Shown here piece after piece: positions 60,320 to 62,917 of a stretch of 64,000 nt of DNA. This DNA is from Clostridia bacterium (GTDB taxonomy: Bacteria; Bacillota; Clostridia; TANB77; CAG-465). The DNA lies in the NCBI GenBank assembly GCA_045536565.1, contig JAZSNU010000020.1, positions 71,275 to 135,274 on the forward strand, in the 5' to 3' direction. The notes beneath the pieces were generated by a model, which saw nothing but the letters and a program-made list of their open reading frames with translations, was not told the DNA's origin and made no database searches. Made by a program: the position numbers and the translations under genes. Numbering within the stretch: position 1 is the first letter of the stretch; the number at the start of each line of letters is the position of its first letter.

Positions 60320-60408
60320 GCAGATGTGGCGGAACTGGCAGACGCACAGGACTTAAAATCCTGCGAGCTTCAAAACTCGTACCGGTTCGATTCCGGTCAT
60401 CTGCACCA
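60320..60408 (+). tRNA. tRNA-Leu (anticodon TAA), long variable arm
   Basis: GCAGATGTGGCGGAACTGGCAGACGCACAGGACTTAAAATCCTG...long arm...GGTTCGATTCCGGTCATCTGCACCA. Preceded by TTGACA-17-TAAAAT. Confidence 0.9.
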
Positions 60409-60678
60409 TTTTTTTATTTTAGCAATATTATATTTGAGAAGAAATGTACATATTAATTAGTTGTAAAAACAAAGCTATAAGGGATTAAGTTTCCCTTATG
60501 GCCTTTTTTATATTTGCCATTCTTAAAATATAATTACTTAAAATACTTAATAATTGAATTGTGGTTGTGATTGGTGTATACTTATTATATCTAATATAGT
60601 ATAATTTACATGTAGAAAAGTTTTAATTTTTGTATTAGAGTAATTGAAGTTGAAACTAATATTTTTGGAGGAATAATA

Positions 60679-61519
60679 ATGGAACATAGAGATAGAGCTA
60701 CTGGTTGGCAGTATGCTAAGTTATCGGGGCATAAAAATGAGGATATGGTTAAGGAACTGTTGGATACTGACAAAGAATTCCAACAACACTTTTTAAATAG
60801 GATTGACCGTTCTTATGAAACAATTAGTGAAACAAGTATAGGACGGACTACATGAGACCAATGTGCCAAGTGTAAATGGAAATAAAACAAAATCTAAGAC
60901 GGATTTAAAAGTTTATTTAAATAGTAACGATATAGTAAATGTTTCAATTAAAAAGAGTTTGGCTGGCCAGGTTTATTTTGTTAGAGCTGGATTGTTTATT
61001 AGTACCTTTGAGAAACAATTTAATAAAATAATTCCTAATTCTGTTCGAAGAGCTATTAATTTGTTTTGGGCTGAAGCTGAGGATGCTATAGAAATAATAG
61101 ACAAATACGCTGACAAATCTAATCAGAAAGATTATAATATGCAAATTCGTCATAGAAGTTTAAATGCAACTACGCTTAAAAATTATGATAAAAAATTATA
61201 TCATGATTTGTTAAATTGGTTTACTGAAAATGCATATGAACTAGCATTATTGTCATTTTCTAAGGGTGCAGTTCTAGATAGTAATGAATGGTCTGATTTT
61301 ATTTGGTATATAAATCTTCTAGAAGAAAACGAAATAGATGATATTTTCTATATAAAAGATATATGTATTGCAGCTGAAAAAGTTGCAAAAGAAGAAACAT
61401 ATTTTGGTCATAATAATGGAGGAACAACAATTCAGTTGCCATTTGGCTTTGTGCAATGGCATCAGGGTCAATTACAATTTCATCATATATATGAAAAGAT
61501 TTGTGCAATTACAAAATAA
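60679..61519 (+). pseudogene. putative type II restriction endonuclease, disrupted by a frameshift
   Basis: ORF 60679..60855 (58 aa, good RBS GGAGGAATAATAAT) stops at TGA. The +1 frame is open from 60842 and continues to 61519 (218 aa). The two frames are simultaneously open over only 14 nt (60842-60855), the signature of a single-base indel. Convergent with the C5 methyltransferase. Confidence 0.45.
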
Positions 61520-61560
61520 AAGTAATCACCGAATGAATTTTACATTCATTCGGTGATTGT

Positions 61561-62631
61561 TTATTCTAAAGCATCTAACATCTGCTTTGCTATTGCCATA
61601 GAAAGTAATGGTGGAACAGCATTTCCTATTTGTAATCTCTTCATGCTATCCGAACCATAAAATTTATAATCATCAGGAAAACTTTGCAACCTTGCTCCTT
61701 CACGAATTGACATTGCTCTTGAATCTCTTGGATGAATACATCGTGAAGAGGAAGGACAAGCGAAGTTCCTTGTTATTGTAGTTGAAGGTCTTTCCCACCA
61801 TAATTTTGCATAAGTGTTTCCGTAACCACTTTTAGGACGAATATCTTCTGGCAAATCATCTTTACATTGTCCATCTTTCAAGCTTTCCATTATTTTAATA
61901 AGGTGTTCACCGTTTTTAGGAGAGCTATGTTCTTCAACAAAATCACTAGTGCTATTTCTTGCAAATGCAAGGAAATCATTAGTAATATTTCCTGAGTATG
62001 TGTTTTTAGATTCTCCGCTGCTTAGCACAGGTAAGTCACCAATGGCATCTTTTAATGTAACATAAGGTTTTAGACCTTTTCCATGGGTTGGGGCAGGATA
62101 CATATAATTGTTTTCTCCTTTGAAACCGACAAGAATAACCCTTTCCCTGTGTTGTGGAACTCCATAATTTACAGCATCTAAAACTTGATATTTTAATTTA
62201 TATCCAAGTTCTTCAAATTCCGATTTTATTTGTTTAAAAAGCCTACCTTTATCCATACTTAAAATTCCTACAACATTTTCAAAAACGAATGCTTTTGGTT
62301 GTAAAATATTAAGAACTCTTTTATACTGCATAAATAAATTAGCTCTGTCATCCATTTGTCTCTTTCCAAGAGTTGAATATGATTGACAAGGAGGCCCCCC
62401 CACAACAATGTCAATTTTTCTACCTTTTAAAGTTTTCTCTAATAATTCTTTGGTTAGTGTGTTAATATCACAATTAAGCATTTCGACATCGGGATGGTTT
62501 AATTTGTATGCTACAGAAATATCATTCTCTATCTCATTTGCTGCCACAATATTAAATTGTGGAAGTTTGGAAAAACCATAACTTAGTCCACCAACACCCG
62601 CAAATAAGTCCATTATATTATATTTTTTCAT
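61561..62631 (-). CDS. DNA (cytosine-5)-methyltransferase
   Basis: Motif I DLFAGVGGLSYGF, motif IV GGPPCQSYS, motif VI ENV, motif VIII QHRERV, C-terminal GNAVPPLL. Start at MKKYNIMDLF after AAGGAG. Confidence 0.85.
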   Translation of the reverse strand: MKKYNIMDLFAGVGGLSYGFSKLPQFNIVAANEIENDISVAYKLNHPDVEMLNCDINTLTKELLEKTLKGRKIDIVVGGPPCQSYSTLGKRQMDDRANLFMQYKRVLNILQPKAFVFENVVGILSMDKGRLFKQIKSEFEELGYKLKYQVLDAVNYGVPQHRERVILVGFKGENNYMYPAPTHGKGLKPYVTLKDAIGDLPVLSSGESKNTYSGNITNDFLAFARNSTSDFVEEHSSPKNGEHLIKIMESLKDGQCKDDLPEDIRPKSGYGNTYAKLWWERPSTTITRNFACPSSSRCIHPRDSRAMSIREGARLQSFPDDYKFYGSDSMKRLQIGNAVPPLLSMAIAKQMLDALE

Positions 62632-62668
62632 ATTTTCTCCTTGAACTATCAATTTGTAATTGATTGTA

Positions 62669-62917
62669 TTAGTTATTCTCAAATTCTAACCATAGAGTAC
62701 AAGCTCTACGAAGTTGCGATTTTATAAACATAGATTTTTCTGTGAATTCAATATTAGAATTAAGAGAGATAGTTGTTGAAGAATTTATAGTATCGATCTT
62801 TAAAATTTTGCATATGCGCTTACATCTAGAAATAACATCTTTTGCACCACGCTTAGTTAGATTTTTTTCTTTCATAAGCCATTCTAAAAAAACATCGTAA
62901 TTCATATAAACCTCCAA
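62669..62917 (-). CDS. small hypothetical protein upstream of the methyltransferase (possible controller/accessory)
   Basis: 82 aa, basic; same strand as and 37 nt upstream of the methyltransferase start. Confidence 0.3.
   Translation of the reverse strand: MEVYMNYDVFLEWLMKEKNLTKRGAKDVISRCKRICKILKIDTINSSTTISLNSNIEFTEKSMFIKSQLRRACTLWLEFENN

Follow-up and report, generated by a model that had tools for sequence, protein, structure and literature searches.

The subject of this analysis is a 64-kb stretch of DNA from a Clostridia bacterium (contig JAZSNU010000020.1 of assembly GCA_045536565.1; positions 1-64000 in the numbering used here; from a genome of 28.5% guanine + cytosine, GC), referred to below as the window. 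A degenerate cassette copy spans its positions 60570-62960. We read this, at a probability of roughly 0.78, as the remains of a type II restriction-modification (R-M) system that was governed by a controller (C) protein and was probably specific for ACGT, in which the restriction endonuclease (R) and C have been lost and the 5-methylcytosine (m5C) DNA methyltransferase (M) has been orphaned. In its intact form, known from relatives, the cassette comprises two convergent units: in the first, a C-box promoter precedes C, a helix-turn-helix (HTH) protein, and then R, a PD-(D/E)XK protein of 279 amino acids (aa); in the second, a sigma-70 promoter precedes a small open reading frame (ORF) of ~80 aa and then M. 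The restriction half of the window copy would be dead twice over, by deletion of C and by an insertion in R, while its M operon (promoter, small ORF and M) is intact, and the locus would now most likely amount to a solitary A(m5C)GT methyltransferase, presumed to be active. A preliminary description of this DNA had already taken it for a type II R-M system with a dead nuclease and a retained C5-methyltransferase, and the fold, the synteny, the insertion and the intact M gene all bear this out; each feature that it listed (the tRNA-Leu gene, the terminator, the split ORF, the convergent C5-methyltransferase and the 82-aa ORF upstream of it) was found again.

The principles at work are all known ones (type IIP R-M, the HinP1I/MspI fold, C control, a system's own site in a promoter, the orphaning of M) and the locus itself is a case of ordinary gene decay. 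What is new is a fold, a partner, a regulator and a likely specificity for ~1000 clusters of 'hypothetical proteins' lying outside Pfam, NCBIfam and PADLOC. As annotation, the locus reads as an R pseudogene beside a solitary A(m5C)GT methyltransferase that is probably active; it should not be taken for a functioning defence system, and this bears on methylome prediction, on transformation of the organism and on the near-absence of ACGT from its DNA. Pipelines for defence annotation gain a model to add, and enzymologists a candidate third N^CGN cutter that can be tested: one scaffold that would read different outer base pairs.

The endonuclease family and its partners

When the two pieces of the R gene are joined across the frameshift, a search at E<=1e-3 with the resulting protein brings up over 1000 protein clusters; the top matches are 70-80% identical, ~279 aa long and aligned over 98-100% of the query. 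Full-length alignment to so many proteins of this size (more than 1000) shows that the split ORF is not a product of chance. By name and by sequence the family is anonymous. All of its named members are annotated 'hypothetical protein', 10 distant representatives included. Neither the window protein (at E<=1) nor any of 70 diverse members (at E<=0.01) has a match in Pfam, and no family match was found in NCBIfam, PADLOC or the PDB sequences, the last of these searched also with a profile made from the 70 members (mean column identity 35%). The OspC, SifA and MltA matches that searches of the PDB by phmmer and with two profiles did return were set aside as noise, and a tblastn search of the PLSDB plasmids gave no match. 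An exhaustive profile search places 240 representative clusters (at 50% identity) of the family among 1.8 billion proteins.

Structure prediction is more informative. The AlphaFold2 model of the repaired R protein, made with an alignment of 72 sequences, has a mean predicted local distance difference test score (pLDDT) of 89.8 and a predicted template modelling score (pTM) of 0.88. (An earlier model, of an X-padded fusion with an alignment of 11 sequences, reached a pLDDT of 60 and was discarded.) Presented with this model, Foldseek returns HinP1I and MspI as its sole matches at probability 1.0. R is thus predicted to share the fold of R.HinP1I (G^CGC; PDB 1YNM, 2FKC) and R.MspI (C^CGG; PDB 1SA3), which are monomeric type IIP PD-(D/E)XK endonucleases, and the global likeness of the predicted model to them extends over the recognition sheet as well as the catalytic one. 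The structural alignments show 12-14% identity, sequence similarity is not detectable, and R stands outside the sequence families of HinP1I and MspI, with no Pfam or PDB-profile match. The residues that are invariant across the superfamily (70 sequences) include E21, K73, D75, S89 and K91. The model puts E21 on its first long helix, D75 where a strand begins (residues 76-80) and S89-x-K91 on a second strand (residues 85-91); this predicted placement is the canonical PD-(D/E)XK layout. The corresponding motif of HinP1I is SD-X18-QXK, and the arrangement in R parallels it; R differs from both enzymes in its D-X13-SXK spacing, in its predicted outer bases (A/T, not G/C or C/G) and in being placed under C-protein control.

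The company that the family keeps points the same way. A scan of one genome per species yielded 36 loci, spread over several phyla, and in 35 of them the R homolog is convergent with an ortholog of the window's M (69-85% identity); the exception is a contig that ends early. A 69-aa gene abuts the R start codon in 27 loci and lies farther upstream in two more (29 loci by tblastn). Its product, the C protein, has its best PDB matches in C.BclI (4e-13), C.AhdI (1e-10) and C.Esp1396I (1e-5) and also matches HTH_3, and a conserved box, GATACTTATTGTATGTAGACTTATAGTAT, precedes the gene. Since a dedicated C protein sits ahead of its gene, the 279-aa protein has the look of the toxic, restriction component. 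Taken together, a fold found only in HinP1I and MspI, a convergent orthologous M in 35 of the 36 loci and a C gene ahead of R in the relatives support the conclusion that the split ORF encodes a restriction endonuclease, 279 aa long when intact. That identification had been put forward in the preliminary description; it is upheld here by fold, by pairing with M and by the C gene of the relatives, the sequence searches having given no match to a restriction enzyme. Adjacent M and R genes and a nuclease fold with conserved residues are features of type II (IIP) systems, with the qualification that R is not intact in the window.

In the relatives, the arrangement in which C abuts R from upstream with a repeat-containing box ahead is that of AhdI (and also of PvuII, BclI and Esp1396I), and the separate, convergent M unit, controlled on its own, recalls the pair of independent loops in AhdI (PMC2275141). 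The window departs from AhdI-type systems in that C is deleted and the box degenerate, and in that the M unit adds a small ORF and carries its own predicted target sites in the promoter.

The methyltransferase operon and the predicted recognition sequence

M itself presents no difficulty. It matches PF00145 (E 4e-76) and TIGR00675 (7e-69) and has the motifs FAGVGG, PPCQ, ENV, QHRER and GNAVPP; it is the complete C5-methyltransferase, convergent to the split ORF, that had been claimed. The 82-aa ORF said to lie upstream of M is confirmed likewise, and its homologs in other loci make it a conserved component of the cassette. The 82 codons are counted from a TTG at 62917, and an ATG at 62905, behind a GGAGG site, is the likelier start (78 aa). 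About two-thirds of the loci have a homolog of it, ~80 aa long, ahead of M. The small-ORF family comprises 109 clusters, all unnamed or hypothetical; comparison with Pfam and with PDB profiles gave nothing significant for the small ORF, and no HTH was detected in it. Its invariant positions include W9, R19, D23, S26, R27, R30 and S63-Q-L-x-R67. In two loci (L001, 7536-8858, minus strand; L036, ~520-1846, minus strand) it shares a single reading frame with M, as the N-terminal part of a fusion protein of ~440 aa. A small module before M, sometimes fused to it, is reminiscent of the N-terminal-HTH methyltransferases SsoII, Ecl18kI, EcoRII, MspI and ScrFI (PMC3874152).

The promoter of the window's M operon is a perfect consensus: -35 TTGACA (62959-62954), a 17-nt spacer and -10 TATAAT (62936-62931). 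In 20 loci the corresponding region reads TTGACGTTGACGTAA, followed after 9-10 nt by TATAAT or TATACT, a ribosome-binding site and ATG. The form found in the relatives, TTGACGTTGACGT, contains ACGT twice, the first copy overlapping the -35 hexamer and the second opening the 17-nt spacer. The window reads TTGACATTGACGT: the ACGT at -35 has been lost by a G>A change (C>T on the other strand) that made the hexamer TTGACA. In L026 there are four copies of the repeat. CfrBI and LlaDII are similar in having their own site in the M promoter (PMC3874152); in the cassette the predicted site is embedded in the -35 element and spacer. The cassette differs from these two, and from the HTH methyltransferases, in its tandem direct repeat, TTGACGT-TGACGT, and in a small ORF that is without a detectable HTH. 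N-terminal-HTH methyltransferases act as repressors of the genes that encode them, and expression is also known to be controlled through methylation of a recognition site that a system carries in its M promoter (PMC3874152). By analogy, M expression is probably subject to feedback from methylation of the promoter ACGT sites, which the small ORF may read. A bolder proposal, which we hold tentatively and would sooner doubt than accept, is that the small ORF is a methyltransferase-associated regulator of a new type that binds TTGACGT-TGACGT at -35 and senses ACGT methylation, with R as the founding member of a third (A^CGT) branch of the HinP1I/MspI N^CGN cutters. If that were true, a methylation-reading loop would act on M besides the classical C-protein loop on R.

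The case for ACGT as the target is largely one of what is missing. With a maximal-order Markov model as the expectation and 136 tetranucleotide classes compared, the window contains 2 ACGT where 48.6 are expected (observed/expected ratio, O/E, 0.04; z -9.2) and the 36 host loci, pooled (393 kb), contain 94 where 699 are expected (O/E 0.13; z -28.8); ACGT is the lowest of the 136 in both. The controls, 80 FtsH-anchored metagenome loci (669 kb) from relatives without the cassette, have an ACGT O/E of 0.83. Taken locus by locus, the median is 0.075 where the cassette is present and 0.76 where it is absent (Mann-Whitney p 4.7e-17). The ACGT that survive in the host loci are mostly one pair, 6 bp apart, in the small-ORF/M promoter, and one of the two in the window (62947-62950) is the second member of that pair. 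The other, at 37300, falls within the 3' end of an ORF of 292 aa (36434-37312). The products of deamination, ATGT and ACAT, are not in excess in the window (O/E 0.98). On sequence grounds, the target of the cassette is most probably ACGT and the methylation A(m5C)GT. By analogy with HinP1I and MspI, which cut G^CGC and C^CGG as monomers (PMC7026639), R is probably a monomer that would cut A^CGT.

There are precedents for this specificity. By its predicted target and predicted m5C modification, the cassette would group with MaeII and HpyCH4IV (A^CGT) and with M.Hpy99XI (A-m5C-GT). ACGT is the m5C type II motif of M.Hpy99XI (jhp0435) in Helicobacter pylori, and it is strongly depleted in that organism, partly through m5C deamination (PMC10423294, PMC3936762). 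The hosts of the cassette share the strong depletion; they differ from the host of M.Hpy99XI in being mainly gut Clostridia.

The window is also short of GATC (49 observed against 133 expected, O/E 0.37) and AGCT (0.62), which suggests other R-M systems, past or present, elsewhere in the genome. The best-surviving alternative takes up this kind of observation: the R-M system would be genuine but its target something other than ACGT, the depletion being due to a different system or to host composition. Palindromes other than ACGT are indeed low as well (GATC in the window, at the value just given; CTAG, GGCC and CATG in the loci), and ten of the loci contain what looks like a second R-M pair nested in the first. 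We nevertheless consider this alternative unlikely. ACGT is the most extreme of the 136 classes in the window and in the loci alike; its depletion extends across 36 hosts that were chosen solely by their R gene and is absent from the 80 controls; and the few ACGT that remain are embedded in the cassette's own promoter. The second R-M pair does not explain the depletion, because loci without that pair are at least as depleted (O/E 0.11 versus 0.20 with it).

A different doubt concerns the nature of R. Methyltransferases that make m5C are often accompanied by Vsr-type repair nucleases, and the 279-aa protein, its family being unnamed in every source, might be a repair or methyl-directed nuclease of that kind, a Vsr-like mismatch-nicking enzyme for example. 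This is very improbable: the fold matches HinP1I and MspI rather than Vsr, a dedicated C protein ahead is a hallmark of toxic R genes, the host genomes have been purged of ACGT, and in the window R decays while M stays, as is to be expected of a toxin-like restriction gene.

Two lesions in the restriction half

The first piece of the R gene (60679-60855) encodes 58 aa, begins MEHRDRATGWQYAKLSGHKNE behind a GGAGG ribosome-binding site and ends in a stop at 60853-60855. Translation of the remainder needs the +1 frame, which has no stop over 60842-61519, a run of 225 codons (218 if counted from the GTG at 60863); the rest of R is read in it from 60842/60845, and the two frames are open jointly only at 60842-60855 (14 nt). 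At the junction, intact homologs have ...TSIG-GLHETNV... where the window has ATA GGA [C] GGA CTA CAT, with A60843 or C60844 as the extra base; the single-base indel suspected from the overlap of the frames is accordingly a one-base insertion relative to the intact homologs. Two Logan metagenome contigs of the same species, from other runs, L037 (DRR851230) and L038 (DRR851226), match window positions 60386-63570 at 99.5-99.6% identity, with 15 and 7 single-nucleotide polymorphisms (SNPs), respectively. Both contain the identical ...ataggacggactacatgag... across the insertion and encode identical 58-aa and 218-aa products. Since three concordant assemblies from non-identical strains share the insertion, an assembly artefact is ruled out: the frameshift is a real, inherited one-base insertion. 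In the model of R it falls in a low-confidence loop, at residues 56-58, and it parts E21, in the 58-aa fragment, from K73, D75, S89 and K91, in the 218-aa fragment. Only two differences, both synonymous, separate the R pseudogene of the window from that of L037; the pseudogene is young or slowly decaying.

The second lesion concerns the controller. A tblastn search with the 69-aa C protein finds no C gene near the window's R. The alignment with five C-bearing loci indicates that ~190 bp of the 207-bp gene are missing, with a decayed 5' end at ~60640-60659; the last 17 nt are kept at 60660-60676 as TATTTTTGGAGGAATAA, which encodes ...LFLEE* and also supplies the R ribosome-binding site. The box ahead of the former gene is degenerate, reading GTATACTTATTATATCTAATATAGTATAAT as against GTATACTTATTGTATGTAGACTTATAGTAT in the relatives. 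By this alignment the C gene is deleted in the window, a second lesion that the preliminary description overlooked. Inactivation of C abolishes expression of the restriction gene (PMC3874152); C-independent expression of R has also been described (PMC4824078).

The stretch ahead of R varies elsewhere in the family. In L018 (~5700-6000) and L019 (~3450-3724), C is a stop-ridden remnant (...IADAL*L*IETYKLFTEE*), and R of L018 starts with GTG. Loss of C recurs in the family, and it may come before the loss of R or be tolerated. In L026 (2703-3608) and L029 (5087-6001) there are ~700 bp between C and R, which encode a conserved peptide (...LPNQRTSTxSDY...MELVNDYTGFWxRTHxLHLRDNKYxQLQRN...); some element appears to have been inserted between the two genes there.

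Does the split allele still make an enzyme? Full-length R might be produced by programmed +1 frameshifting at GGA-CGG-A, with CGG, presumably a rare codon at 28.5% GC, in the A site, or the 58-aa and 218-aa products might together form a split enzyme. In favour of this, ORF calling picks up both fragments, the second of them starting at a GTG, and the allele has been kept without extra damage in three assemblies. We regard either version as most improbable, in view of the fact that the homologs, 36 genomic and many metagenomic, are all single ORFs. After a +1 slip, a tRNA-Gly on GGA would face GAC, with which it cannot pair, and no Shine-Dalgarno-like stimulator was noted; the GTG at 60863 has no evident ribosome-binding site before it; the break, placed as it is in the low-confidence loop, divides the catalytic residues; and the activator, C, is gone. 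Scarcely credible, too, is an intact R-M system whose frameshift arose by error in sequencing or assembly: the 14-nt overlap of the frames is what a single-base error would give, and the absence of decay beyond two synonymous differences from L037 would suit it, but the homopolymer error that had been offered as an alternative is rejected by the non-homopolymeric context of the extra base (GGA[C]GGA), its presence in two independent, SNP-differing assemblies gives three in concord on the insertion and the split ORFs, and the C gene is gone as well.

Returning to the degenerate, orphaned cassette as the preferred reading, several points weigh against it. At sequence level, Pfam, NCBIfam, PADLOC and the PDB profiles link R to no restriction enzyme that has a name. 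The R pseudogene, with its two synonymous SNPs, lacks further decay, and some residual function of its fragments is conceivable. Loss of C need not silence R, considering that L018 and L019 have a decayed C and yet an intact R ORF. ACGT as the target is deduced solely from site depletion, promoter sites and analogy of fold; its loss from the hosts fits m5C deamination and restriction avoidance alike, and another ACGT system in the same hosts could in principle be the cause.

Distribution, mobility and surroundings

The hosts of the cassette are mainly gut and rumen Clostridia (Oscillospiraceae, Acutalibacteraceae, Lachnospiraceae); the others are one Campylobacter genome and single Fibrobacteraceae, Bacteroidaceae and Desulfovibrionaceae bins. 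In 6-kb flanks, nothing is common to the loci beyond R and M, and the cassette is therefore a self-contained mobile one. A MobV relaxase (PF01076) and TnpV (PF14198) adjoin it in four loci (L011, at 10027-11598 on the minus strand, L012, L017 and L030), and there it accordingly rides a mobilisable element. M.Hpy99XI-like ACGT methylases of Streptococcus suis likewise ride MobV mobilisable elements (PMC12479173). A horizontal origin of the cassette, as judged from its distribution, is well supported.

The cassette starts 170-270 bp after tRNA-Leu(taa), the R gene being the part 270 bp away, in surroundings of housekeeping genes (ssb, rplI, dnaB, tilS and ftsH). In five other loci (L001, L008, L009, L025 and L027) a tRNA-Leu, with anticodon gag, tag or cag, is directly upstream and in the same orientation, and in three more there is a tRNA on the M side. 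L025 has a 22-nt direct repeat of the 3' end of its tRNA-Leu(gag), with one mismatch (5391-5412 and 5592-5613), upstream of the cassette, the copy lying 200 bp downstream of the tRNA like the scar of an att site. In L037 and L038 homology to the window begins within the last 23 nt of the tRNA (60386-60408). What precedes it (positions 1-1276 of these contigs) is not ftsH and tRNA-Leu but unrelated DNA, with a 200-aa partial ORF and a DUF6809-like 95-aa ORF, and it closes with a partial, one-mismatch copy of the tRNA 3' end, as if another element had integrated at tRNA-Leu in those strains. The recurrent tRNA-Leu neighbours, the repeat in L025 and the junctions in L037 and L038 make the 3' ends of tRNA-Leu genes integration hot spots around the cassette.

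The preliminary description had called the locus a horizontally acquired islet at a tRNA gene. The mobility of the cassette and its recurrence beside tRNA-Leu agree with this; a distal att-like repeat, an integrase in the window and an empty site, which would have completed the picture, were not found. More precisely, no second copy of the tRNA 3' end occurs in the window at up to 3 mismatches (the window ends ~1 kb past the cassette), there is no integrase between 60409 and 64000, and GC content does not distinguish the cassette region. In the search for an empty site, the exact tRNA-Leu pattern was absent from the metagenome contigs searched, FtsH relatives (53-65% identity) had no tRNA after ftsH, and exact look-ups of L9, the methyltransferase and the 58-aa piece brought up only short contigs, two or three in number, all belonging to this species and to the same pair of samples. 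Coordinates of the features of the cassette and its immediate surroundings are collected in Table 1.

Table 1. Features of the cassette region, in window coordinates
Feature	Position	Strand	Basis and remarks
tRNA-Leu (anticodon taa)	60320-60408	+	ARAGORN; Rfam RF00005
Terminator-like hairpin and T run, 3' of the tRNA	60474-60502	+	Consensus scan; function inferred
Degenerate C-box-like operator/promoter of the former C-R operon	60576-60605	+	Alignment with five C-bearing loci; operator role by analogy
C gene remnants	60640-60676	+	Alignment; tblastn with the 69-aa C protein
Frameshifted R gene (HinP1I/MspI-like fold, predicted)	60679-61519	+	
Site of the one-base insertion in the R gene	60843/60844	+	Alignment with intact homologs; same sequence in L037 and L038
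Hairpin (15-bp stem) between convergent R and M; probably a bidirectional terminator	61524-61558		Consensus scan; function inferred
Intact C5-cytosine DNA methyltransferase, 356 aa	61561-62631	-	PF00145, TIGR00675, PADLOC MTase_II
Small conserved ORF, 78 aa from ATG	62669-62905	-	tblastn; heads the M operon; presumably regulatory or DNA-binding
Promoter of the ORF82-M operon	62931-62959	-	Promoter scan, 12/12 matches; conserved in 20 loci

Some cassettes carry additional genes. Ten loci (L002, L003, L004, L006, L011, L012, L014, L017, L023 and L030) have an extra ORF of 245-278 aa, without a family match, between R and M, and in most of these loci a further C5 methyltransferase, of 314 aa, separates M from the small ORF; in L003, for example, the two are at 6777-7613 (plus strand) and 8727-9671 (minus strand). 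These are the genes that look like a second R-M pair nested in the first, and GGCC, CATG and GATC are all lower in the loci that carry them. A different conserved ORF, of 222 aa and without a Pfam match, lies between R and M in L001 (6845-7513), L020, L026 and L029.

Elsewhere in the window, a small bacterial SRP RNA (RF00169, 63 bits) is found at 21804-21901 on the plus strand, the remaining Rfam matches being five tRNAs. Beyond the cassette, at 63292-63936 on the plus strand, an ORF of 214 aa without a family match has an N-terminal hydrophobic segment and 6.9 tandem 39-nt units (63533-63804) encoding DKLVDIEDKVVAE-like repeats; the gene is present in L037 also.

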